A stretch of 12,188 nucleotides of DNA from Candidatus Heimdallarchaeota archaeon. GTDB taxonomy: Archaea; Asgardarchaeota; Heimdallarchaeia; Heimdallarchaeales; Heimdallarchaeaceae. Below the pieces are notes generated by a model, which saw only the letters and a program-made list of their open reading frames with translations, had not been told where the DNA came from and ran no database searches. Position 1 is the first letter of the stretch. The number at the start of each line of letters is the position of its first letter. This document shows, one piece after another, positions 1 to 12,188 of this stretch. The position numbers and the translations under genes were made by a program. The stretch is from the NCBI GenBank assembly GCA_019057375.1, contig DXJF01000004.1, positions 1 to 12,188 on the forward strand, written 5' to 3'.

Positions 1-122
1 CTGCTACTAAGGTTCCTACTGCTAAAAAACCTACTGCCAAAAAACCTGCTACTAAGGTTCCTACTGCTAAAAAACCTACTGCCAAAAAACCTGCTACTAA
101 GATTCCTACTGCTAAGAAGCCT
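1..122 (+). repeat. Coding tandem repeat: 45-bp unit built from 15-bp subunits, encoding PATKV-PTAKK-PTAKK
   Basis: Bases 1-45 and 46-90 are identical (ctgctactaaggttcctactgctaaaaaacctactgccaaaaaac). Bases 91-122 are a degenerate partial third copy. The array may extend upstream of the window. Confidence 0.95.
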
Positions 123-650
123 GTAGCAGAAAGTAAAGATAAATCAATTCCTAAACCAAAGGTTCCTAAAACAACTCCAAAAGCAGTTGTAAAGAAAACT
201 GAACCTAGACCTTCTGTAAGACAGCCTGTTGCAAAAGCTCCAGTAAAGAAATCAATAACAGTCAAAACTACAGTTTCAGAAGCTACAAGAAAAGCTATAG
301 AACAAGGTACTCACATATTTACAATTAAAAAGAAGAGAACTAAGAAATCTAAACCAAAGAGGTTAGCTAAGATTTCTACAACATTTGGTGTTGTTACCAG
401 AATTTTACATGATGGTGCAGGAAAATCTAAGAATAGAACTGTTACTATGAAACTCTATGAAACTGAGATTCCATTAGAAAAATATCTTGGTAGAAAAGTT
501 AAAGTCAATTTCCCAAATTCAGATAAACATCTTATAGGAACTATTACAAGACTTCATGGAAAAAGCTCTTCAGTTGATAAATCAGTTGTAGTTAGATTCT
601 CACAGGGCGTGAGCCCTCATATATTAACAGCAAGAGGAACGTTCCTTTAG
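3..650 (+). CDS. rpl35ae: 5'-truncated protein (at least 215 aa): K/P/T/A-rich low-complexity extension plus C-terminal ribosomal protein eL33 (L35Ae)-like domain
   Basis: The frame of track ORF 447..650 has no stop back to base 3 (ATKVPTAKKPTAKKPATKV...). The last ~88 aa (from ~384: FGVVTRIL...EKYLGRKVKV...KHLIGTITRLHG...VVVRFSQGVSPHIL) follow the L35Ae pattern G-V-V...[LY]-[IL]-G-[RK]-x-V...G-x-[IV]-x-R-x-H-G...V-x-x-x-F. The match is divergent, so a paralog cannot be excluded. Confidence 0.7.
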   Translation, partial: ATKVPTAKKPTAKKPATKVPTAKKPTAKKPATKIPTAKKPVAESKDKSIPKPKVPKTTPKAVVKKTEPRPSVRQPVAKAPVKKSITVKTTVSEATRKAIEQGTHIFTIKKKRTKKSKPKRLAKISTTFGVVTRILHDGAGKSKNRTVTMKLYETEIPLEKYLGRKVKVNFPNSDKHLIGTITRLHGKSSSVDKSVVVRFSQGVSPHILTARGTFL

Positions 651-692
651 AATAGCCATTAATCTTAAAAAGGGCTGTTCCTTATTTTTCTT

Positions 693-1058
693 ATGGCAAG
701 AAAAAGAGACCTTCAGAGATGGGCACAAATATTATCCTATACTGGAGGAGTTTTATTTGCTCTAGGCGCTGCTCTGTTATTTCTTAATCATTTTCTTCCT
801 TCACCTTACCTACCAAATATCGTTCAAGATTTAATTGTAAAAACAGTTTTATTTACCGTTCCATTAACTACTATAGTCTTAGCAATTATTGGCGTAGTTT
901 TAGGTGCTACTATAATAATTTTAGTTGGAGCTGAACCTCCAGAAATGGTTACTGGTATCATACTAATTATCATTGGATTATTTGGTCTTGGGATTCCAGG
1001 ATTATTTGCAGTAGTTGGCGGAATATTGTTTATTATTGCTTCCACAAGAAAGCGATAG
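693..1058 (+). CDS. Small 4-TM membrane protein (121 aa), paralog A, function unknown
   Basis: ATG start, basic N-terminus (MARKRDL), four Gly-rich hydrophobic segments, basic C-tail (RKR). Clear similarity to 1125..1478. Confidence 0.85.
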   Translation: MARKRDLQRWAQILSYTGGVLFALGAALLFLNHFLPSPYLPNIVQDLIVKTVLFTVPLTTIVLAIIGVVLGATIIILVGAEPPEMVTGIILIIIGLFGLGIPGLFAVVGGILFIIASTRKR

Positions 1059-1087
1059 TATTTTCTAATTATTATATCTTTTACTTA

Positions 1088-1102
1088 AAGAAAATTTAAA
1101 TA
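1088..1102 (+). promoter_or_regulatory. Candidate archaeal BRE + TATA box for a leaderless transcript of paralog B
   Basis: aagaaaa-tttaaata, with the TATA box at 1095-1102 starting 30 nt upstream of ATG 1125; no SD motif. AT-rich background lowers specificity. Confidence 0.55.
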
Positions 1103-1124
1103 GAACAACCTTTCATTAGGCTTT

Positions 1125-1478
1125 ATGGCGAAGAAAAAAGAACTCGCGCAATGGGGTACAATTTTTGGAGTACTCGGTGGTGCTTTTTGGATCGTAGTCG
1201 GAGTTTTAACTATATTGGAAACCATAGCAGCTGGAATTATGGATGTATTCTATACAGCATCTTGGCTGGATAAAATAGGTGGAGGACTGCAACCTCTAAT
1301 TCTTGGAATAATATTGATTGCAATTGGAGCACTTGTAGTTCTTTTATGTTTAGGACGCTTTGGTTTATCTTATGTTGTTATTGGAATATTGCTGATAGTT
1401 TTTGCTATTATTGGAAGTGGTCTTCCAGCAATTTTAACTTTAATTGGAGGCATATTCTTTATTGTAGCCGGCGCATAA
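1125..1478 (+). CDS. Small 4-TM membrane protein (117 aa), paralog B, function unknown (C-terminal half loosely DUF4064-like)
   Basis: MAKKKELAQW N-terminus and four hydrophobic segments. The C-terminus GSGLPAILTLIGGIFFIVA parallels GLGIPGLFAVVGGILFIIA of paralog A. Confidence 0.85.
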   Translation: MAKKKELAQWGTIFGVLGGAFWIVVGVLTILETIAAGIMDVFYTASWLDKIGGGLQPLILGIILIAIGALVVLLCLGRFGLSYVVIGILLIVFAIIGSGLPAILTLIGGIFFIVAGA

Positions 1479-1499
1479 TTTTTAATTCCTTTTTTTTTT
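1479..1499 (+). terminator. Oligo-T archaeal-type terminator candidate
   Basis: T5-aattcc-T10 (T10 at 1490-1499) directly after stop codon 1476-1478. Confidence 0.6.
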
Positions 1500-1551
1500 G
1501 TTCTCTAAATCTATTTTACAATAGTTTTTATATTTTGATTCTCCTCTTTAA

Positions 1552-4539
1552 TTGAAGATAATGTCAGATACAGATAGATTCAATCCTTCTCTTTATTTAG
1601 GAAAAGAACATTCTACAGATGAAGATGTATTTTTGCCTCTAAAGGCTTTAAATAAACACATAAGCGTTTTTGGGCAAACAGGATCAGGGAAAACAGTCGC
1701 ATGTAAAATACTTATTGAGGAAGCTGTGAGACATGAAATTCCTGCAATTATTATTGATCCTCAAGGAGATATAAGCTGCTTGGCTATGGTTGAAGATTAT
1801 GAGAAACTGAAACCTTATGGCATTTCAGAGGAGTTTTACAATGAATACAAAGATAAGGTTGAAGTTGTAATTTTTACACCTGCATCTGAAAAAGGGATTC
1901 CTCTTTCAATTAATCCTCTTATAATGCCTCCTCAAGAGTTAGACAAGGAGGAGAAAATTTTGGCTATAGATGGTATTGCTACAACTATGGTAAATGTACT
2001 TGGATACAAAATTAATACAGAAAAGGGAGGAGCTGTAAAAGCTTATTTAGTCTCTCTTTTTGACCAATGTTTAGAAAAAGATATACTGATAGCTAACTTT
2101 GAGATGTTGATTGATTTGATTAGAACAGAAGAAGCATATCTATCAGAAAGTATTAGAACTTTATTATCACAAAAAGAGAAGGATTCACTAATAAAAAGAA
2201 TAAAATCAATTAACGTAGGAGCTTCTTCTCTTGTATTTAATTTGGGACCAAAATTATCTGTTCAGAATTTGATCCGCCCAACTAATCCAGATAAAATCAG
2301 AATTGCTATAATTTTTATGAATACACTTTCAAACCTAAGACTGAGGGAACTCTACATTACAACCCTTGCTCAAAATCTTTACACTTACATACGCTCTAAT
2401 CCATCTACAGATCCTCAACTTATTTTTTATATAGATGAATTGGCGGGACCACCTCAACTAATTCCCCCTCATCCAAAAAATCCTCCTACAAAACAGTGGT
2501 TGCAGCTTCTATTCAAACAAGGCAGAAAATATGGTCTATCTATGGTAGTAGCAACTCAGAATATAAGTGATGTAGATTACAAATCCTTTGGTCAAGTAAG
2601 CACCTTTCTCTTTGGTAGATTCGTCACTCCTCAAGATTTGAGAATAGTTGACAAAATGCTTCAATCTCACCCTGAAGCTAGATTCATAGTAGACCAATTG
2701 CAAAAATTTAGGAGTGGAGAATTTTACGTTCTTTCACCAGATAATTTCAATGCTCCAGTTCACATTATTACAAGAAGACTCTACTCAGTTCACCAAACCC
2801 TTTCAGATGAAGATGTAGCAAAAATGTATGAGTATCCACCTGCTACCTTATGCAAGCAGATAGGTGATTATGATCATGATATTGACTCTGTGGATTTTGA
2901 AGATATTGAAAAAGAACTAAATTTAGAGGATTTGGAAAAAGAATTATCTGCTATCAGAAAATTTACTAAAACTACTAGTTTGCTTGATCAACAGGTAGAT
3001 CTTATTGAAGATGAAGACAATGCAGTTGAAGAAGAAATAAGAAAAGCAACTGAAGAAATCGAATCTGAGGAGAGAGATGAAATTGAAGAAGAATCAGACA
3101 TCTCAGTCTTAGAACCCATCGACCTAACCAAAATAATAAAGTCAATGAAAGAACAATACTTGAAGTATGAGCCTGTAGAGTTCAAAGAATTATTGGAAAA
3201 ATTCTTTGGAACTAGGAAAATAAACTATCTCGGAACCGAGAATCTCAATCTTGCATATGTTCCCTTTTTGTATCTCGATTTTCAAATAAAAGCTAAGAGA
3301 AGAATTAAAGTTAATTATGCTAATGCAGAAAGATGGGAAAATGCTTTGCTTGAACTACCTATAAGAAGAATTTTTCCCTTATTAGACCGTATAGAATTTA
3401 GTGACAAAGAAAAGATTTGGGGACAAACAAGTATTCCAATTCAAGCTGAAGAAGTATTTGAAGAACTTATTTCAGTCCTTCCAATGAAAAATCTAGGAAG
3501 TTTATTCTCAGCATCATCAGCTAATATTAAGCAATTAGAAGTTCAAAGAAAACCTGAATCCATCCTTGAATCATTTCATGATGTTCTCTTGATAGATCAA
3601 ACGTTCTATGTTCAAGCTTGGCAAAACTGTATTAAAGAAGGACTAGTAACTATTGAGAAAGAACATGAAGCTGAAATACAAAATTGGTTAGAAGAATTGG
3701 AGAAGGAAAGAGATACACTCTGGAAGGAAATTGATATCAAAAGAAAGAAAGTTAAACAATTTCAAGCAAAAATTGAACAAGCTAAGGCTCTCTATGTTAC
3801 TCTTAAACCATTGATTGAGGATAAATACAAATTCAAGAGTAATAACGATGTTACTGATTATAATAAAGCAATAGAAACCATCAAATTTGGCCCTGAGGTT
3901 GTAAAGAACTTTGTGAAAGATGTGGAGAAAGCAATTGTTAGAATAAAGGAAATTGACATAATAGCTAAAGAATCACCCAAAGTCAGATTAATTGAAGATA
4001 ATCTTCGTTTAACCGCTAAGAAGGAATTCATTATACCAAAAAGTTCAGAAATACGGGACATCTATGCTGCTTTGATTTATATCCCAGTTTCATTAGCTGA
4101 AATTGCTGTATCAGATGCAAACGGCAATAAAATTAAAACTCACGGAATTGCTGAATCTGTTCTAGGAACTGAGATTCACTTGCTATGTGATTTGTGTCTT
4201 ACAAAACAAGCAGCAAAAATGTTATTTGTGTCAACTCCAGATGTATGTTCAGTCTGTGGAAGTGTTCTCTGTCAAGATCATACAGTTACAGATAGCATAA
4301 CACATGAAATAATATGCTCAGATCACGCTGTTGTTTGTTCATACTGTAAAAATGTTGTATCATCTGAAAAGGGGTCCAAATGTGCTTTCTGTGATAATCA
4401 TGTGTGCAGTGATCATATCATCAAATGTTCAACCTGTGGTAAAGTGATTTGCAGTAAGCATTCAAAAAAGATAGTAAAGAAAGGTGTGTTCAAAGAAGAA
4501 GAACAATATAGATGTCCAGATCATTCTAAAAGGAAGTGA
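1552..4539 (+). CDS. HerA/FtsK-superfamily (DUF87-type) ATPase with acidic linker, coiled coil and C-terminal Cys/His zinc-finger repeats (995 aa; ATG 1561 is an alternative start)
   Basis: Walker A GQTGSGKT followed by IIIDPQGD, FTPASEKGIPLSI, Walker B IFYIDE and QGRKYGLSMVVATQ (Arg finger/sensor). D/E-rich region ~2866-3123; heptad-like region ~3655-3800; CxxC-x4-CxxH repeats 4186-4524. Confidence 0.9.
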   Translation: MKIMSDTDRFNPSLYLGKEHSTDEDVFLPLKALNKHISVFGQTGSGKTVACKILIEEAVRHEIPAIIIDPQGDISCLAMVEDYEKLKPYGISEEFYNEYKDKVEVVIFTPASEKGIPLSINPLIMPPQELDKEEKILAIDGIATTMVNVLGYKINTEKGGAVKAYLVSLFDQCLEKDILIANFEMLIDLIRTEEAYLSESIRTLLSQKEKDSLIKRIKSINVGASSLVFNLGPKLSVQNLIRPTNPDKIRIAIIFMNTLSNLRLRELYITTLAQNLYTYIRSNPSTDPQLIFYIDELAGPPQLIPPHPKNPPTKQWLQLLFKQGRKYGLSMVVATQNISDVDYKSFGQVSTFLFGRFVTPQDLRIVDKMLQSHPEARFIVDQLQKFRSGEFYVLSPDNFNAPVHIITRRLYSVHQTLSDEDVAKMYEYPPATLCKQIGDYDHDIDSVDFEDIEKELNLEDLEKELSAIRKFTKTTSLLDQQVDLIEDEDNAVEEEIRKATEEIESEERDEIEEESDISVLEPIDLTKIIKSMKEQYLKYEPVEFKELLEKFFGTRKINYLGTENLNLAYVPFLYLDFQIKAKRRIKVNYANAERWENALLELPIRRIFPLLDRIEFSDKEKIWGQTSIPIQAEEVFEELISVLPMKNLGSLFSASSANIKQLEVQRKPESILESFHDVLLIDQTFYVQAWQNCIKEGLVTIEKEHEAEIQNWLEELEKERDTLWKEIDIKRKKVKQFQAKIEQAKALYVTLKPLIEDKYKFKSNNDVTDYNKAIETIKFGPEVVKNFVKDVEKAIVRIKEIDIIAKESPKVRLIEDNLRLTAKKEFIIPKSSEIRDIYAALIYIPVSLAEIAVSDANGNKIKTHGIAESVLGTEIHLLCDLCLTKQAAKMLFVSTPDVCSVCGSVLCQDHTVTDSITHEIICSDHAVVCSYCKNVVSSEKGSKCAFCDNHVCSDHIIKCSTCGKVICSKHSKKIVKKGVFKEEEQYRCPDHSKRK

Positions 4540-5114
4540 ATTATATCTCATCAAAACCACATAGAAGACCACCACTTGTGATAGTACTTGCAGGACTTCC
4601 AGGAACAGGTAAGTCTACATTAGCAAGAAAACTAGCAAGGAAATATAGACTAGAGCATATAAGTACGGATTCCGTTAGAAAAAGAATTTTTAGAGATGTA
4701 AGAAGGAATACATTTGGTAGAGGTTCTTATAGCAATAGACAAAGAATGATAGTTTACGATACAATCTATTATGTGCTTTATACACTTTTGAAAAATGGCG
4801 TGGGATGCGTTCTAGATGGAACTTTTTATCAAGAAAGGCTTCGTAGCAAAGTCGGAAGAATCTGCGCAAGATTTGACGCTAAGTTTGTTCTTGTAATTGT
4901 CGATTGTCCAGATAGCATAATCAATAAAAGGTTCAAAGAGAGAGATAAAAGAACTAGACGAACCTTAAGTGATGCAGATTTACAAATATATGAGAAATTC
5001 AAAAAACTATTTGAGACAACAAGCCTTCCACATATTGAAGTTAATATGGCTTCAGAACATAATGAAATATTAGAAAGGATTAGCGATGCTATCACAGGAA
5101 AAGATACTGAGTAA
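4536..5114 (+). CDS. AAA_33 / COG0645-type P-loop kinase (192 aa)
   Basis: GLPGTGKST P-loop, STDSVRK, VLDGTF, and lid region R-x3-R...SDAD. The GTG start overlaps the upstream TGA (GTGA, 4536-4539). Confidence 0.88.
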   Translation: MNYISSKPHRRPPLVIVLAGLPGTGKSTLARKLARKYRLEHISTDSVRKRIFRDVRRNTFGRGSYSNRQRMIVYDTIYYVLYTLLKNGVGCVLDGTFYQERLRSKVGRICARFDAKFVLVIVDCPDSIINKRFKERDKRTRRTLSDADLQIYEKFKKLFETTSLPHIEVNMASEHNEILERISDAITGKDTE

Positions 5115-6075
5115 TTTACAAAAATCATCTTATTATCCACATGAAACCAACAAGGATATTCAGATGATTGAAACCCATATAAGTTGGGTTTTCTTAACTG
5201 GTTTGTATGTATATAAAATGAAAAAATCGCTCAAATTTGGAGATATTTTGGATTTTTCTACTGTTGAAAAAAGGTTTCAAGCATGCAAAAATGAACTTTT
5301 TTACAATAAGCGCTTAGCTCCTTCCATTTACTTGGAAATCGTTCAAATTAATACCAATCTAGAATTTTCCGTGCGTGGTAAGCCATTAGAATACCTAGTA
5401 AAGATGAAGCAATTACCTCAAGAAGATTTGTTGTTAAATAAAGTTAAAAATAGTGAAGAATTATCTGATGTACTCTTCATTAAACTTGCAAAAATTATTG
5501 CTGAATTTCATAAGAAAAACACTATTCAACCTGAATTTTCTGTATATGAAAATATATTTGAAAAATGGGATGAAAATTTCCGTACAACGAGAACTTATCC
5601 TGACTTTCCTTTGGATTCAGTTTTAGAAACCAGAGTGTTTAGTTTTTTGGAGAAAAATGAAAACTTCTTTAACAAACGCTCCAATCAGGGGAAAATTGTG
5701 GATGGTCATGGGGATTTAATTCTAGCAAATATCTTCTATTTCAAAGGAGAAATTATTATTTTTGATTGTATTGAATTCAATGAAATGCTTAGAATCCAAG
5801 ATGTTCTCGAGGAAGTTGCATTCCTCGCAATGGATTTGGATTTTCACGGGTTATATGATTTATCTGTATTATTTATGAAAGAATATCTTGAAAGAATCAA
5901 TAGTGACTTTACATCTGAATCACCAATAATTAACTTTTACAAATCCTATAGGGCATATGTAAGGGCAAAAGTCTATTACTCACAAGTTCTTCAAGAGGAA
6001 TCAGGAGAAGCTAGAGACAAAGTTGTAGCATTGTCAAAAAAGTATATGAAATTAGCTTCTTCGTATGACTTCTAG
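5086..6075 (+). CDS. Aminoglycoside phosphotransferase-like (COG2187-type) protein kinase-fold enzyme (329 aa)
   Basis: YPH...IETHISWVFLTG...YKMKK, HGDL catalytic loop, DCIEFN, DV..EVAFLAMDL and FYKSYRAYVRAKV. Overlaps the upstream gene by 29 nt. Confidence 0.9.
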   Translation: MLSQEKILSNLQKSSYYPHETNKDIQMIETHISWVFLTGLYVYKMKKSLKFGDILDFSTVEKRFQACKNELFYNKRLAPSIYLEIVQINTNLEFSVRGKPLEYLVKMKQLPQEDLLLNKVKNSEELSDVLFIKLAKIIAEFHKKNTIQPEFSVYENIFEKWDENFRTTRTYPDFPLDSVLETRVFSFLEKNENFFNKRSNQGKIVDGHGDLILANIFYFKGEIIIFDCIEFNEMLRIQDVLEEVAFLAMDLDFHGLYDLSVLFMKEYLERINSDFTSESPIINFYKSYRAYVRAKVYYSQVLQEESGEARDKVVALSKKYMKLASSYDF

Positions 6076-6083
6076 ATTCAAAT

Positions 6084-6090
6084 AGAGGGA
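6084..6090 (+). promoter_or_regulatory. Possible ribosome-binding site for nfo
   Basis: agaggga ends 7 nt before ATG 6098, inside a 22-nt intergenic gap. Confidence 0.4.
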
Positions 6091-6097
6091 ATTATGA

Positions 6098-6940
6098 ATG
6101 GTAAAGCTTGGTTGTCATGTTTCCATATCTAAATCGGTAGATTTATCCTTTGATCGAGCTAAGGAAAAGGGATGTGATGTTTTCCAAGTTTTTGTCAAAA
6201 ATCCTAGAGGTTGGGTAGCAAAAAATCTATCTGAAGAGGAAATAAGTAAGTTCAAAAGTAATCAGTCAACTAGAAATCTTTATCCAACCTTTGCTCACAT
6301 TTCCTATCTTCCTAATCTTGCATCACAGAATCCTGAAATGTATAAGAAGTCTATTGACTGTTTTTCTATTGAAATTGAAAGATGTAAAATTTTAGAAATT
6401 CCTTATTTTGTAGTTCATGGAGGATCATATAAAGGAGGAACTTTGGAACAAGGTTTAACCACATATATACAATCCATCATAAAAGGAATTGAAGCTTCTG
6501 AAGGTAAAGTTACGATTTTAATCGAGAATTCATCGGGTGGAAAAAATTCCTTAACGGGTTCACTCAAAAATATTGGGAAGATTATAGCTGAAATTAATGA
6601 TTCACATGCAGTGCAGGTATGCTTTGATACATGCCATGGATTTGGTGCAGGATATGATCTAAGAGATTCTAAAGCTGTACAAAACACTAAGGAAATTATA
6701 GAGGAAAATATAGGTCTAACTAACTTAGCTCTGATTCATGCAAATGATTCTCTAGGAGAGTTGAATTCATTCAGAGATAGACATGAGCATATAGGATTAG
6801 GTAATATAGGTGAAGAGGGATTTAGAGCACTGATAAATGACAAAGATTTTAATCAAATTTCATGGATATTAGAAACTCCTATTGATGAAAGGAGAAATGA
6901 TATCGGTAATTTAACTTACCTCAGATCCTTAATAAAATAA
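6098..6940 (+). CDS. nfo: Endonuclease IV (AP endonuclease family 2), 280 aa
   Basis: LGCHVSI, AHISYLPNLAS, VVHGGS, LIENSSG, CFDTCHGFGAGYDL, HANDS, DRHEHIG.G.IG and ILETP; the tri-metal ligand motifs are recognisable. Confidence 0.95.
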   Translation: MVKLGCHVSISKSVDLSFDRAKEKGCDVFQVFVKNPRGWVAKNLSEEEISKFKSNQSTRNLYPTFAHISYLPNLASQNPEMYKKSIDCFSIEIERCKILEIPYFVVHGGSYKGGTLEQGLTTYIQSIIKGIEASEGKVTILIENSSGGKNSLTGSLKNIGKIIAEINDSHAVQVCFDTCHGFGAGYDLRDSKAVQNTKEIIEENIGLTNLALIHANDSLGELNSFRDRHEHIGLGNIGEEGFRALINDKDFNQISWILETPIDERRNDIGNLTYLRSLIK

Positions 6941-6955
6941 AGAAATTGATGTAGT

Positions 6956-7540
6956 CTAATTGAATGGTGGAAAGACTACATTGAAAATTATTGTGAATAA
7001 AATACCTAGTCCAATAGTATATACTCCTGCGAGAAATGCTGGGGCCATTTTTGGAATTCTTTTCTCTCCAGGTCGAATATCGGTATCGATGAATTTTCCT
7101 GTTGTTTCATCAAGAGATTGACCTGTTGCCATCTCACTCACAATCTTCTTCTTTTTCAGAACTTGTATTTCCTCTTTAACATCATCTAAGCTTTTTTCTG
7201 CTTTACGAAACTTATATTTAATAAATAACCAGTAAGTTTGCATCATATCTAAGGAAGTTGAAAATCCATATAGAAAAGCTGAAGCTCCATAAATAAACAA
7301 GAATAAAATTGTTGTGCTCAATGAGCCACTAGTAAATCCTAATCCAAGTAGAACCCCTGTTAGTATTGCAGAAAACCAGAGGATGGAAGCTAACAACCAG
7401 GAAGATAGGGGCATTTTCATAATTTTATCATAAAAGATTCCTGCTCTTGATACATCAAAGGAATATCCACAGTAGGGACATTTGTATACTCCTCCTTCCA
7501 TAAGTTCAATATTTTCTAGTTTGCAGAATCTACAATCCAT
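6956..7540 (-). CDS. Zn-ribbon, 3-TM membrane protein (~194 aa), function unknown
   Basis: Encoded on the minus strand (reverse complement of 7540 downwards reads ATG GAT TGT AGA TTC TGC); the track label + is wrong. Contains CRFC-x14-CPYC, two TM helices, a Lys-rich loop and a C-terminal TM helix. ATG 7540 is preferred over TTG 7543 because of SD spacing. Confidence 0.85.
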   Translation of the reverse strand: MDCRFCKLENIELMEGGVYKCPYCGYSFDVSRAGIFYDKIMKMPLSSWLLASILWFSAILTGVLLGLGFTSGSLSTTILFLFIYGASAFLYGFSTSLDMMQTYWLFIKYKFRKAEKSLDDVKEEIQVLKKKKIVSEMATGQSLDETTGKFIDTDIRPGEKRIPKMAPAFLAGVYTIGLGILFTIIFNVVFPPFN

Positions 7541-7545
7541 CAATT

Positions 7546-7551
7546 ATCACC
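7546..7551 (-). promoter_or_regulatory. Shine-Dalgarno-like site GGTGAT
   Basis: The minus strand reads GGTGAT-AATTG-ATG. GGTGAT is complementary to the AUCACC part of the 16S rRNA 3' end. Confidence 0.6.
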
Positions 7552-7560
7552 ATATAATAC

Positions 7561-7593
7561 AAAGAAGATAAATCCAAAGTCTTTATATTCTTT
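7561..7593. repeat. Imperfect inverted repeat (12-bp arms, 1 mismatch, 9-nt spacer) in the GTPase-to-membrane-protein intergenic region
   Basis: aaagaagataaa (7561-7572) / tccaaagtc / tttatattcttt (7582-7593). Confidence 0.5.
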
Positions 7594-7635
7594 ACGGAAC
7601 TACCCTCTTTTTAATATATAAAATTCTTTTCCTTG

Positions 7636-8544
7636 CTATGCTAATAGCGATTTAACGAAATCTGCAAGCTTTTCTTTATTCTGATTCTTTTTGTTTTTGG
7701 ATAAATATTCGTTGACAAGAAAAGCTAATCTTCGAGCTTCAGGTAATGTTTGTTCATTATCTACAGCTATAGAAATAAAATGATTTTTCTCTTCACATAT
7801 GAAGTAGAAGTAAGGATCAACCTTGATAACTTTGAATTTATCATGACCGAGAAGTTCATTAGTAAAACCACTCAATGCATTGAGATATCCAACAAACATA
7901 TTCGAATCTTCAACAATGTTATCTGGATCATAAAGGTTTAGAATGTTTCCGTCAACATCTGTAATTAGGAGTGCATTTGGTGTTGTTTTCTGAATGTCGA
8001 TTAATTGTTTAACCTTACTTACAAACCATTTCATTGCATATTCTGTGTTTTTAGCTTCTCTAAAGGATGTCTTAAAGAATTGAAAGGAGAGGTTCTGATG
8101 CTGAGACATTTTTGTGAGATTTAGAAGCTCAATAATCTCTTCAAGATTCATTGCTTTTTGCAAGTCAGATTTGTTAGCTATGAACATTATAACTTTATCA
8201 GAATAGTTACCCTGTAGCCATTCATCAACCATAATCCAGAACCATTTAGAAGCTTCTTCAAGCTGTTCTCTATCTGAGGAATCGAGAACAAAAATAATCC
8301 CCACAGAAGTCATTACGTATGATTTCCAGATTGTTGAACGAAAGGATTTTTGTCCCGAGATGTCGAAGATACTGAAATTTATGTTGCTAATTTTAATTTC
8401 TTCAAAATTAACACCAACAGTAGGTTTTGGTCTTGTGAATCTACCTTCTTTAATCCAATTCACAAGAGTTGTCTTTCCAGCATATGGTAAACCAATTATC
8501 GTTATTGGAATTCCATTTTTGTTCAACTTCTGAATGTCTTCCAT
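7636..8544 (-). CDS. Arf-family-like small GTPase fused to a C-terminal longin-like domain (302 aa)
   Basis: Minus strand (reverse complement from 8544 reads ATG GAA GAC ATT CAG). G1 GLPYAGKT, G2 PTVG, G3 DISGQ, Arf-type FR..IW..Y, GIIFVLDSSD, G4 ANKSDL followed by AMNLEEI..LL.L, and G5 region TSF. The last ~115 aa show a beta-beta-alpha-beta-beta-beta-alpha-alpha pattern. Confidence 0.88.
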   Translation of the reverse strand: MEDIQKLNKNGIPITIIGLPYAGKTTLVNWIKEGRFTRPKPTVGVNFEEIKISNINFSIFDISGQKSFRSTIWKSYVMTSVGIIFVLDSSDREQLEEASKWFWIMVDEWLQGNYSDKVIMFIANKSDLQKAMNLEEIIELLNLTKMSQHQNLSFQFFKTSFREAKNTEYAMKWFVSKVKQLIDIQKTTPNALLITDVDGNILNLYDPDNIVEDSNMFVGYLNALSGFTNELLGHDKFKVIKVDPYFYFICEEKNHFISIAVDNEQTLPEARRLAFLVNEYLSKNKKNQNKEKLADFVKSLLA

Positions 8545-8575
8545 TCTCTCTCAAAGAACTATCATTCTGAAAGTT

Positions 8576-10870
8576 TTAAAGATTGAGGAGAAGGTAATCC
8601 AAAATTGAAACCATCTCTGAATAAGGAGCAGGTTGCCTTTTCCTTCTATCTCTAACTGCTTTACTGTTCTCTCGACAGAATAAAGAAAATGTGTATATCA
8701 TCTGTGGCATTTCTTTCTGTTCTTCCAGATATTCTGTTATTTTTCCTAGTGTCTCACTGACTTCGTAAAAGTTTTTACTAGATTTAGTATAATTACTTGA
8801 AGCCTTAGAAGGTTTCTTTACAATAGCGTAAAGTTCACCAAGAATGACCCCTTGTAAACCTTCATACATCTTTTTGATAACAGGTCCAAAGACATTCCTT
8901 CTTTTAACAAAATCCCAGTTGATTTCATTCCCCTTTATGGAAACACTTTTGCTTGTTGCTATTAATTCTTGAGTATCTAATAATATAAGATCCAGTAGTT
9001 CATGAAATTCAGTCATTTCTGCAAATTGCTTTTCAACTGCTTCAGCTAGAACTTCTGGTAACTCCTCAGATTCAATCGTAACTCCAATCATCTCTTCGAT
9101 GAACTTTCTAACTACATTCTTGTATGTACTTTGAAGACCTAGTGTAACCAAACTTGATTCAGTTACCATTCCCACAGTTTTTGTCTCAATCATCCTTTCA
9201 TTAATTAAGTTTTTTAATTCCTTTTCTTGCTTCTTTATACCAACCATGCTTTGTTCTGCTTTCTTGGCATAATAATGAGCTCTAGAACGTAAAATTAAAT
9301 CTAGAACAATGTTATTATCTGCAAACAAATAGACCTTATTTTCAGAAATCAATGACTTAACGTAGTATCTTATGGCATGAACTTTCTTTCTTTGGTTATC
9401 TCTCTCAGGTATAAAAGAAGGTAAAAGTTCAATGGCTTTTTCTAAATATGAGAGCTTCTCATCAAGTTCTTGCAATTCGCTGAAACTTGCTCTAGGGTTC
9501 TCATCATTAACTTTGAGAAATGATAAATGAACTTCAGAGAGAGCTGAACTCATAGATTTTAAAGGGAAGCTGAATTGTGAAACAAGTCTATCAATTATGT
9601 TCAAATGGGATAAATCCTGCTGAAGTAGTTCACTTATTATTGTTGAGGCTGAAGAATATGCTACACTAACACCATAAATGTAAGGTAGTGATCCTGTTCC
9701 CTCTATTTCACCGAGTAATTTTTCTATGTCAACACATGCTTGAAGAGCCTCTTCTGCTTTTTGATCATATAATTTTTCTACTAAAGTTGAGTGTTTTAAT
9801 CCTAATTTGGTCAAAATATGTAGAATTTTTAGTTCTGATTCCTCTTGCTGATATTGTTTGTGTATTTTTTGTCCTTCAGGATTTTCTGTTTGTTCTAGAA
9901 GATCACAAGCCTTCTTGTATTCTTTCAATGCTTTTGCATAGTATTTAGATGCATGATTAAGGTCTCCACTCTCTAATGCACCATTTGCTAGTAATTTGAA
10001 GTGTTGTACGAGAGAAAGAGAACTATGTGCTTCAACTATTGGTAAAAATTCCTTTTGAATTGTTATTGCTCGATTTCCTTGAGTTTCAGGGCTTTTGGTC
10101 CAAATCTCAACTGTAGTCTCAAAATGCTCTTTAGCATGATTCAATATGGATATTTCACTGATAGGATCAGCCCACCAGAAATCTTGTGCAGCTTTCTTAG
10201 ATACATCAATTATATTTGAAAGCAATGTAACTCCTTGTAAGTAATCATATTCACTTTTAATCATTAATACGCTTAAATCTTTATCACTATCAGGAAGGCT
10301 ATCGTAAAGCGGAAGAAGTCTTTTCATATTTTCTAGTTGAACTAGTGGCATTAACACATTCAGCATGTCCCCTATAATTGGTGCAGGTGTCAAGCTTGTT
10401 GTACTTGCTTCAGGAATCTCATTATGCAGTACTCGATAGAGAATTTTATCAATAGATTTTTTTGCAGTAATATAGTATATGTATTGACTAGTTGATGGGG
10501 AAAAACCAAAGACTCCTCTATTTCTCACTTGAGAATAAACATACGTAAGTACACCTAATTGAAGCTCAAATTGATTAAGGGCCATTAACTGGTTAGAGAA
10601 ATCACCATAAAGAAGATCATGAAGAGGTAAAGGATTTGTTTTTGTTTCCTTTACATCAAGAAACACGTCATATAGTCTCTCAATGGCCATGTCAGCTAAA
10701 CTATTGATTGACGATAGGTTTTGAGCACATGATTCTGCAAAGATAACCCATGCTGTAGAAATTTCCTTAGGTTCATCTAAAGTAGTAAATGAGCGATAAA
10801 GATCATCTCTTTCTAATTCCATTTCTACAAATTTATTAAAAGGTCTAGTATCTAGCAAAGAAAGATGCAT
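8576..10870 (-). CDS. Large soluble, predominantly alpha-helical protein with TPR-like repeats (764 aa), function unknown
   Basis: Minus strand (reverse complement from 10870 reads ATG CAT CTT). No catalytic motif or TM segment recognised. TPR-like stretches: ALESGDLNHASKYYAKAL, LSYLEKAIELLP, LGELYAIVKKPSKASSNYTKS. Confidence 0.8.
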   Translation of the reverse strand: MHLSLLDTRPFNKFVEMELERDDLYRSFTTLDEPKEISTAWVIFAESCAQNLSSINSLADMAIERLYDVFLDVKETKTNPLPLHDLLYGDFSNQLMALNQFELQLGVLTYVYSQVRNRGVFGFSPSTSQYIYYITAKKSIDKILYRVLHNEIPEASTTSLTPAPIIGDMLNVLMPLVQLENMKRLLPLYDSLPDSDKDLSVLMIKSEYDYLQGVTLLSNIIDVSKKAAQDFWWADPISEISILNHAKEHFETTVEIWTKSPETQGNRAITIQKEFLPIVEAHSSLSLVQHFKLLANGALESGDLNHASKYYAKALKEYKKACDLLEQTENPEGQKIHKQYQQEESELKILHILTKLGLKHSTLVEKLYDQKAEEALQACVDIEKLLGEIEGTGSLPYIYGVSVAYSSASTIISELLQQDLSHLNIIDRLVSQFSFPLKSMSSALSEVHLSFLKVNDENPRASFSELQELDEKLSYLEKAIELLPSFIPERDNQRKKVHAIRYYVKSLISENKVYLFADNNIVLDLILRSRAHYYAKKAEQSMVGIKKQEKELKNLINERMIETKTVGMVTESSLVTLGLQSTYKNVVRKFIEEMIGVTIESEELPEVLAEAVEKQFAEMTEFHELLDLILLDTQELIATSKSVSIKGNEINWDFVKRRNVFGPVIKKMYEGLQGVILGELYAIVKKPSKASSNYTKSSKNFYEVSETLGKITEYLEEQKEMPQMIYTFSLFCRENSKAVRDRRKRQPAPYSEMVSILDYLLLNL

Positions 10871-10956
10871 AAGATAACATATCTTTTAACTTCAATAAAT
10901 GTTTTGCAGAATCTTTCATACAAAAAATCTAAATATAAACTCTCTAAAACAAAGAT
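10871..10956. promoter_or_regulatory. 86-bp divergent intergenic (bidirectional promoter) region
   Basis: Lies between head-to-head starts at 10870 (-) and 10957 (+). TATAAA at 10934-10939 is positioned for a leaderless + transcript. Confidence 0.55.
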
Positions 10957-12042
10957 GTGAAACCCATAGATTATATTAAAAGGCAAAATATGATTATTGA
11001 TGTTCTAAAAAATGAAGAAATAGATATGCTGATGGTTCCCCCTTCAATTAATTTCTTTTATTTGTTTAAAGGATATTTGGGGTTGAGTGAGAGATTGATT
11101 TGTGGGATTCTTTCACCCTCAGAAGATTCTATACTAATAGCCCCTTCATTTGAAAAAGAGAACCTGCAAATTCAGACTACTTATGATGAGATAGTAACTT
11201 GGAAGGAGGAAGAAAACCCATATGTAATTCTAAAAAACGCACTTTCCTCTAGACCAAAGAAGATTGCTTTAGAACCTTCTACTCCTTTTGAAATTTATAA
11301 AAGATTGAAACAACAGTTCCCAGAATCAGTTTTTGTTGATGCTGGACCAATAATAAATGAGTTTAGATCAGTAAAAACTGAAGAGGAGATTCAAAGAATG
11401 ACAAAGGCTTCTGAAGATACAGCTACTGGTATAGCTTCAGCTCTTGAGATTATTCAAACTGGCCAAACTGAACTGGAAATATTGAAAATTGTACAGGAAC
11501 AAATGGCTCTTATTTCAGGAGAGATGGGATGGGCATTAGTTCAAATTGATGAAAACAGTGCTGTACCACATGGTAAATCATCAAAGAAGAAACTGAAACA
11601 AGATAGTGTGATTCTTGTTGATGCTGGAACAACATGTGACCGTTACTTTGCTGATATTACAGTCACAAGTGTGCATGGAAAACCTTCACAAGCGTTCCTT
11701 GATGTATATAGTATAGTTGAGGATGCTAATAACAAGGCTCTTGAAGTTTCCAAATCGGGGGTTCCAGCTGAACAAGTAGATTTTGCAGCAAGGGAAGTAA
11801 TCGAAAAAGCTGGATATGGACAGTATTTTACTCATAGATTAGGTCACGGTTTAGGGTTGCAGGTACACGAAGAACCCTACATAGTCAAAGGAAATATTGA
11901 ACCATTAGTTTCAGGAAATGTTCATACAGATGAGCCTGGGATTTACATTCCAGGTAAATTCGGTATTCGAATAGAAGATGATGTTTTAGTAGGAGAAAAA
12001 TCTAGAAGATTGGTTGAATTTGATAGATATTTGTGGAAGTAA
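10957..12042 (+). CDS. pepQ: Xaa-Pro aminopeptidase/prolidase, peptidase family M24B (361 aa)
   Basis: Creatinase-like N-domain, then PHG, DAG..CDRYFADIT, HRLGHGLGLQVHEEP and EPGIY.PGKFGIRIEDD metal-binding motifs. GTG start. PepQ versus PepP cannot be resolved by eye. Confidence 0.92.
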   Translation: MKPIDYIKRQNMIIDVLKNEEIDMLMVPPSINFFYLFKGYLGLSERLICGILSPSEDSILIAPSFEKENLQIQTTYDEIVTWKEEENPYVILKNALSSRPKKIALEPSTPFEIYKRLKQQFPESVFVDAGPIINEFRSVKTEEEIQRMTKASEDTATGIASALEIIQTGQTELEILKIVQEQMALISGEMGWALVQIDENSAVPHGKSSKKKLKQDSVILVDAGTTCDRYFADITVTSVHGKPSQAFLDVYSIVEDANNKALEVSKSGVPAEQVDFAAREVIEKAGYGQYFTHRLGHGLGLQVHEEPYIVKGNIEPLVSGNVHTDEPGIYIPGKFGIRIEDDVLVGEKSRRLVEFDRYLWK

Positions 12043-12043
12043 A

Positions 12044-12188
12044 ATGAATTACAAAAATTATGATCGAGTTGCAAGTGTATACGATTTTACGCGTAAAATT
12101 CCAAACGAATCAATTCAGTTCTTTAAAGAAAAAATATACACATTTTTGGATAACAACTACAGCTCTTCCAATTACAGGATTCTATCTA
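12044..12188 (+). CDS. 3'-truncated probable class I SAM-dependent methyltransferase
   Basis: ATG 1 nt after the peptidase stop. It translates as MNYKNYDRVASVYDFTRKIP...NYRILS, matching the common [FY]D-x-x-A-x-x-YD-x-x-R N-terminus, with RILS plausibly leading into motif I. The glycine loop lies beyond the window. Confidence 0.6.
   Translation, partial: MNYKNYDRVASVYDFTRKIPNESIQFFKEKIYTFLDNNYSSSNYRILS

Follow-up and report, generated by a model that had tools for sequence, protein, structure and literature searches.

An orphan all-helical protein gene lies beside an Arf-longin GTPase gene in a conserved cluster of Heimdallarchaeaceae

Small GTPases of eukaryotic type are numerous in Asgard archaea, and almost none of their partners is known. 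Does a small GTPase of Candidatus Heimdallarchaeota have a partner among the genes beside it? The locus that raises this question lies in a stretch of 12,188 nucleotides (nt) (GCA_019057375.1, contig DXJF01000004.1, positions 1 to 12,188; hereafter the window), which is contig C108 of a 3.47-Mb genome that is 89% complete. An earlier note on this DNA had proposed three minus-strand genes separated by gaps of 31 nt and 95 nt, and both the open reading frames (ORFs) and their homologues bear this out. Each ORF is a real gene with dozens of full-length homologues at 46-94% identity, and the closest protein matches to the window genes are named Candidatus Heimdallarchaeota or Heimdallarchaeaceae in their sources. 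We propose that the cluster, which is restricted to Heimdallarchaeaceae, comprises two transcription units, one a bicistronic unit for a 764-residue all-helical protein and an Arf-longin GTPase in which the helical protein would be the partner of the GTPase, and the other a separate gene for a membrane protein. We hold this reading about as firmly as we doubt it. The genes and domains are as follows.

8576..10870, minus strand: gene for the 764-residue all-helical protein (P0001), of an orphan Heimdallarchaeia family; predicted first cistron of the pair
7636..8544, minus strand: GTPase gene (P0002), 302 residues; predicted second cistron of the pair
7990..8544, minus strand: G domain of the GTPase (P0002 residues 1-185), Arf-family, ArfR type
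7636..7989, minus strand: C-terminal longin-type domain of the GTPase (residues 186-302 and the stop codon)
6956..7540, minus strand: gene for the zinc-ribbon membrane protein (P0003), 194 residues

The P0003 ORF read from a TTG covers 6956-7543 (minus strand, 195 residues). Orthologues begin with MDCRFC or MECRFC, one codon later, and we therefore place the true start at the ATG at 7540.

The spacers around these genes suggest how the cluster is transcribed.

10890..10906, minus strand: B recognition element (BRE)/TATA-like element CAAAACATTTATTGAAG, about 25 nt upstream of the ATG of the 764-residue protein gene
8545..8575, minus strand: 31-nt spacer between the 764-residue protein gene and the GTPase gene, without a TATA-like element and ending in the purine-rich, Shine-Dalgarno-like GAGAGAGA
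7579..7599, minus strand: promoter-like element TTCCGTAAAGAATATAAAGAC, about 40 nt upstream of the zinc-ribbon membrane protein gene
7546-7551, minus strand: GGTGAT Shine-Dalgarno-like site between the TTCCGTAAAGAATATAAAGAC element and the membrane-protein gene

An element of the CAAAACATTTATTGAAG type occurs at the same distance from the gene in all loci examined (L001, L002, L006, L009, L010 and L024) and the sequence around it has diverged, so that a promoter function is the likely reading; the distance of about 25 nt from the ATG suggests a leaderless or short-leader mRNA for the 764-residue protein. The 31-nt gap had been described as purine-rich before the GTPase ATG and without an obvious TATA box, and it is indeed so. 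Spacers between the two genes in relatives are 21-74 nt long (14 loci measured); they are not conserved in sequence and contain no TATA-like element, and most end in a purine-rich or GGTGAT-like stretch just before the GTPase start. The element at 7579-7599 (pattern TTCC..AAAGAATATAAAGAC) is kept in 12 of 12 compared co-directional loci and moves with the membrane-protein gene where that gene is inverted (L001 and L003). The suggestion that the third gene may have its own promoter, and hence a weaker linkage, thus held up. Since TATA-like elements precede the 764-residue protein gene and the membrane-protein gene, and none lies in the spacer of the pair, we read the cluster as a bicistronic unit for the helical protein and the GTPase plus a separate unit for the membrane protein. 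Two rearranged loci are informative about these blocks: at L003 the 764-residue protein gene and the GTPase gene are inverted as a unit with the flanks and the third gene in place, and at L001 the membrane-protein gene is inverted alone.

We surveyed the helical family in 400 genomes of the phylum, in which family f1 is Heimdallarchaeaceae in the source names. The family is present in 30/30 genomes of f1, 1/1 of f2, 3/3 of f3, 9/12 of f4 and 4/12 of f7, and in none of the others. The GTPase orthogroup, defined at a threshold of at least 390 bits, is confined to f1, where in 28/28 genomes with an assembled orthologue its gene immediately follows the helical gene on the same strand; contig ends interrupt the region, or it is missing, in the remaining three f1 genomes. 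Members of the membrane-protein family were found in 30/30 f1 genomes and in 0/52 genomes elsewhere in the class, and its gene always adjoins the pair, even when inverted. Asgard GTPase genes generally lie outside operons with regulators (Tran et al. 2024, PMC10933270), which makes the conserved pairing of a GTPase gene with the 764-residue protein gene unusual, and in the literature that we searched no paper describing this operon was found.

The amino-terminal part of the GTPase is an Arf-family G domain. Pfam Arf matches residues 8-177 with an E value of 1.7e-34 and 119 bits (cut-off 22.3), followed by weaker matches to Ras, Roc and SRPRB (E 3.2e-07 for SRPRB). When a profile of 24 orthologues was searched against the sequences of solved structures, four Asgard ArfR entries ranked at the top (8oun, 8oum, 8oul and 8ouk; E 2e-35 to 1.5e-30), with Arl8 and Arf1 after them, and it is on these best matches that the ArfR assignment rests. 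In the AF2 model of the GTPase (predicted local distance difference test, pLDDT, 80.5) the G domain superposes on Arl1-GTP, HodArfR1-GTP and Arf1-GTP with Z scores of about 22 and a root-mean-square deviation (rmsd) of 2.1-2.5 Å over 165-171 residues, with 2.1-2.2 Å for Arl1-GTP and HodArfR1-GTP. The motifs are G1 GLPYAGKTT, T42, DISGQ...R69...W73...Y76 and NKSD, with an atypical G5 (KTS). GxxxxGKT (18-25), D61-x-x-G64, R69, W73 and N124-K-x-D127 are invariant in the 24 orthologues; T42 is replaced by Ser in three of them and Y76 is present in 15. The protein thus carries the Arf-type switch II and interswitch signature DxxGQxxxRxxWxxY, and with its G motifs intact it most likely cycles between GTP and GDP. 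Residue 65, the catalytic position after DxxG (window 8350-8352), is Gln in 17/24 orthologues and His in 7/24, a variation that parallels the difference between Arf and Sar1/SRbeta.

Neither Gly2 nor a conserved long N-terminal helix was found in the 24 orthologues, and about 10 variable residues with pLDDT below 50 precede strand 1. The lack of Gly2 and the short, variable N-terminus indicate an Arf-family G domain without the usual membrane anchor, in agreement with the earlier note, which had seen no obvious lipid anchor. The closest characterised proteins, the Asgard ArfRs, also called AArf (HodArfR1 and GerdArfR1; 8ouk-8oun; bioRxiv 10.1101/2024.02.28.582541; PMC11914678), provide the best G-domain sequence match, share the fold and have the same Arf-type switch II; however, the ArfRs that have been studied consist of a single domain of about 180 residues, many with an N-terminal amphipathic helix, whereas P0002 has a short variable N-terminus, no Gly2, an atypical G5 and a C-terminal domain of 117 residues. 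Some Asgard Arf-family members are known to carry extra domains, one paper naming longin, and such fusions are mentioned only in passing (PMC11914678; bioRxiv 10.1101/2024.02.28.582541). No partner or operon for Arf-longin fusions is described in the literature searched.

The 117-residue C-terminal domain is of longin type. Its elements in the AF2 model follow the order beta-beta-alpha-beta-beta-beta-alpha-alpha, which is the longin order, with a pLDDT of 84-91 in this part: strands at 191-196 and 201-205, a helix at 214-232, strands at 237-242, 245-251 and 255-261, and helices at 264-283 and 290-301. A nearly invariant LPEARR (267-272) marks the start of the penultimate helix. Among 15 members searched with Pfam, Intu_longin_1, the first longin domain of Inturned, Ccz1 and HPS4, matches four collinearly (best E 0.001 and 19.7 bits, cut-off 23.7), and Fuz_longin_1, the first longin domain of Fuzzy, Mon1 and HPS1, gives sub-threshold matches to two, including one paralogue. 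These longin-family matches span about 75 residues at 14-20 bits, all under the curated cut-offs (23.7 and 26.1), and no match to the Robl_LC7/roadblock family was reported in the same search. Against the sequences of solved structures the domain retrieved only designed proteins, at E of at least 0.005. Together with the profile and structure matches of the G domain, these data support the fusion of an Arf-family G domain to a longin-type domain that had been read from the ORF, and "Arf-longin fusion" is a fair name for the protein. The first longin domains of Mon1/Ccz1, Fuzzy/Inturned and HPS1/HPS4 (PF19031 and PF19036) thus share the element order and give collinear matches; they differ in belonging to stand-alone tri-longin subunits of guanine nucleotide exchange factors, not to GTPase fusions. 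We also considered longins of the GTPase-activating protein (GAP) type (FLCN, SMCR8 and NPRL2), which carry an arginine finger in the loop between strand 1 and strand 2 together with a GP motif (PMC12290439). This candidate was rejected: no Arg occurs in the corresponding loop (197-200) among the residues tallied in 24 orthologues, and the motif after strand 2 is D-P rather than G-P.

The arrangement of the two domains invites a comparison with Rag GTPases. The best full-length Foldseek alignments of the GTPase, over 291-314 columns, are to LokiRagO (8yl2), RagA, RagC and Gtr1. Like these proteins (8yl2, 6s6a and 7t3a), P0002 has about 300 residues with an N-terminal G domain and a C-terminal alpha/beta platform, and its overall architecture therefore resembles that of Rag/Gtr despite the Arf-type G domain, which by its sequence appears to lie outside the Rag clade. 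Pfam yields five families for P0002 at E ≤ 0.01, of which none is Gtr1_RagA, and a few orthologues carry a precomputed PF04670 match next to a stronger Arf match. The C-terminal domain also differs, with longin rather than roadblock order and weak longin-family matches, and the template modelling (TM) score with Rag/Gtr is only about 0.45 because the orientation of the domains differs. SRbeta with the longin-like SRX domain of SRalpha offers a second comparison, by analogy only: these combine an Arf-family G domain, a longin-like domain and a membrane anchor, and the SRPRB match in Pfam points the same way, but P0002 has its longin domain in cis, a separate protein carries the membrane segments and no gene related to the signal recognition particle is nearby.

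Many GTPase paralogues with this architecture are encoded in the genome, among them two abutting genes in tandem on contig C37 (G000:C37:2109-4115; L018 2109-3104 and 3105-4115, minus strand). The two proteins, of 331 and 336 residues, each join a GTPase domain to a C-terminal platform domain, and the gap between their genes is 0 nt. By analogy they are a candidate Rag-like heterodimer pair; an operonic pair in Lokiarchaeon MK-D1 (PMC10933270) is the arrangement to which they can be likened. Divergent from the closest GTPase paralogue, and without a Pfam family, lies a gene (L017 2877-5645, G000:C135, minus strand) for a 922-residue secreted beta-rich protein with repeats of about 90 residues rich in W, Y, I and E and a C-terminal membrane anchor. 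This neighbour was tried as a relative of the helical family and proved unrelated (hhalign probability 0.2%).

The product of the first cistron had been labelled a TPR-like solenoid, and the evidence does not bear this label out. The model of the 764-residue protein is all-helical, with 26 helices of which many are 30-50 residues long (pLDDT 87.6, predicted TM score 0.88). Pfam searches of 30 diverse family members revealed no common family; TPR_2 gives one marginal match in the window protein (E 0.45) and matches three of the 30 members at E of at least 0.016. When segments of the protein were compared with one another using hhalign, no internal repeats were found except for one weak pair (294-348 versus 677-733, probability 38%). 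The whole model gave no fold match above the helical background in Foldseek against the PDB, in VIA or in the atlas search: the best Foldseek entry is TTC7B (5dse; E 1.2e-3, probability 0.80, TM 0.12-0.13, rmsd 37 Å), the best Z in VIA (wide and second look) is 10.8-11.5 against a background of about 13 for helical models, and the atlas search remained at TM ≤ 0.29. The comparison with adaptin, COP, SNAP and TPR folds that the earlier note had called for therefore yielded nothing above this background, and with neither repeats nor a fold match the solenoid label is unsupported. TTC7B is an irregular TPR scaffold, and although it heads the Foldseek results, its TM of 0.12-0.13 and the lack of sequence repeats here mean that the match is not evidence of kinship; a language-model search with scores of at most 0.82 likewise has a TTC7_N cluster among its weak matches (0.78).

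A profile search of 1.84 billion representatives retrieved 58 clusters, nearly all full-length proteins of 720-780 residues, and no cluster from another known family. We conclude that the protein belongs to an orphan all-helical family restricted to Heimdallarchaeia. At about 20% identity its members conserve WWWxDPI (231-237, with D235 invariant), IDExxEI..W (31-41), RxxDE (65-69) and Y112/G119. Genomes of f1 carry two paralogues of the family, and in a FastTree tree with midpoint rooting, which is indicative only, the window-type f1 clade stands beside an f2 and f4 clade with the second f1 paralogue elsewhere.

Three further observations concern this family. Residues 273-373 of P0001 (window 9752-10054) form three helices that superpose on MIT domains (MITD1, Vps4 and an archaeal Vps4-like protein) with Z of 10.4-11.5 and rmsd of 1.3-1.6 Å over 71-74 residues (best Z 11.5, 1.3 Å over 73); these Z scores lie under the helical background, the same segment contains the sole TPR-like sequence motif, and the modelled likeness to MIT is a lead only. 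The second paralogue, of 755-783 residues (G000:C26:14854-17121, L016 6855-9122, plus strand; L023 6581-8932), is followed in two genera by a BpsA_C-like gene and an OapC-like zinc-ribbon gene, with no GTPase nearby. At the f7 loci (L021 3073-8888, G081:C11; L022) the homologue is divergent from an APH-like kinase gene, and a gene for a 473-residue fusion of HEAT repeats and a Ras-like GTPase lies about 2 kb away.

The third protein, P0003, carries four invariant cysteines (C4, C7, C22 and C25) in an N-terminal CxxC-x14-CxxC arrangement, followed by three hydrophobic segments (about 46-68, 75-98 and 166-190). Between the second and the third of them lies a charged loop of about 65 residues that ends in an invariant TDIRPGE. 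Its family comprises about 90 clusters, all at least 47% identical and none with a Pfam family. An ArfGAP-like zinc ribbon was considered and rejected: the soluble N-terminus is only about 44 residues long, there is no Pfam ArfGap match, and the Arg after the second CxxC is not conserved.

What, then, might the three proteins do? Here we infer, since every protein-protein contact among the products goes beyond the observed gene anatomy, domain identities, operon organisation and taxonomic distribution. In the reading that we propose, the GTPase would switch between GTP and GDP states, its longin domain would offer a platform for dimerisation or docking, a role that longin and roadblock domains play elsewhere, and the co-translated helical protein would be its direct partner, as an effector or regulator. 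On the strength of the conserved bicistronic arrangement, the chances that the helical protein is indeed a GTPase partner seem to us evenly balanced. In a further step, the weakest, the membrane protein may hold the pair at the membrane; tethering is proposed because the GTPase lacks an anchor of its own, and the persistent adjacency and shared narrow distribution of the zinc-ribbon protein point the same way, yet we consider the anchor role unlikely. A complex prediction with the full 764-residue protein, GTPase residues 1-190, GTP and Mg returned a score of 0.00 with controls not run, and it counts neither for nor against binding.

Several findings weigh against this proposal. The main one is that the helical protein is, family-wide, independent of the window-type GTPase: homologues in f2, f3, f4 and f7 have no GTPase neighbour, and f3 and f4 contain no close relative of the GTPase at E ≤ 1e-25, so the helical family as a whole is not tied to it and its members there must act without it. 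The genes that do adjoin the homologues outside f1 and the paralogue at G000:C26 (BpsA_C, OapC, AdoHcyase, AlaX-like, CbiM, hydrolase, Rpb6 and QueC) are unrelated, and no conserved partner was found beside the homologues outside f1. The third gene appears to be a separate transcription unit, and the unrelated HerA-like, AAA_33, APH-like, AP-endonuclease and M24 flanks are as syntenic in f1 as the trio, with 40-60% identity between genera and rates of divergence similar to those of the trio. The adjacency in relatives that the earlier note had made its test is thus conserved across f1, but in that one family only and in company with unrelated flanks; by itself it is weak evidence, and, the whole neighbourhood being syntenic, the adjacency of the third gene carries little specific weight. 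These observations lend themselves to an explanation by inherited synteny, in which the region is merely conserved in f1, the 764-residue protein works independently of the GTPase and the membrane protein is unrelated to both. We regard this as somewhat unlikely, since it leaves aside the short, promoter-free spacer, the inversion of the pair as a unit, and the fact that in 28 genomes every member of the GTPase orthogroup adjoins the 764-residue protein gene. Given the synteny of the flanks and the GTPase-free homologues outside f1, a functional link is plausible between the members of the operon pair and weak where the membrane protein is concerned.

At the other extreme, and building on the earlier note, which had inferred an effector or scaffold and a membrane receptor for the GTPase, the three proteins could form a membrane machine of coat, adaptor or tether type, with the zinc-ribbon protein as receptor, the Arf-longin protein as switch and the helical protein as a solenoid scaffold that shapes or tethers the membrane. 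Each of the three families, or its specific clade, is limited to f1, the third gene has kept its place beside the pair through two independent inversions and the GTPase itself is without an anchor, but the helical protein has neither repeats nor an above-background match to adaptin, COP, SNAP or other solenoids, the third gene is probably transcribed separately and no trafficking-specific domain appears in the Pfam results; we consider such a machine quite unlikely. Alternatively, the GTPase might dimerise through its C-terminal domain, with itself or a paralogue, and report metabolic state as a Rag-like signalling dimer, with the helical protein as target or sensor and no membrane remodelling. 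The full-length structural matches to LokiRagO and Rag/Gtr proteins and the many paralogues of the same architecture, the C37 tandem among them, would fit, whereas the Arf/ArfR sequence of the G domain and the absence of Gtr1_RagA at E ≤ 0.01 argue against it, and we think this very unlikely. Returning to the proposed GTPase and helical pair with its separate membrane protein, its boldest extension is that the three proteins make up a lineage-specific, GTP-controlled membrane-recruitment machine in Heimdallarchaeaceae, resembling an Arf-effector-receptor set. We would be surprised if this held; if true, it would bring in two families without known relatives, and no earlier GTPase-partner set of Asgard archaea would have been defined from genomes.

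The GTPase is of a known kind, and the 764-residue and membrane-protein families are undescribed orphan families, one with the striking WWWxDPI signature. The conserved bicistronic pair offers a directly testable binding hypothesis for an Arf-family GTPase. If the two proteins bind, they would illustrate the wiring of an Arf-type switch at a time before eukaryotic effectors existed; if they do not, the cluster would be a case of lineage-specific synteny, of modest interest.

The trio is bordered in the window by the following genes.

10957-12042, plus strand: M24 peptidase gene, upstream and divergent
6098-6940, plus strand: AP_endonuc_2 gene (AP-endonuclease-type TIM barrel), downstream and convergent
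5086-6075: APH-like kinase gene, close to the trio

The AP-endonuclease gene is absent at L001 and L024. In different genera of f1, the HerA-like, AAA_33 kinase, APH-like kinase and AP-endonuclease genes of window 1552-6940 keep their order beside the trio.

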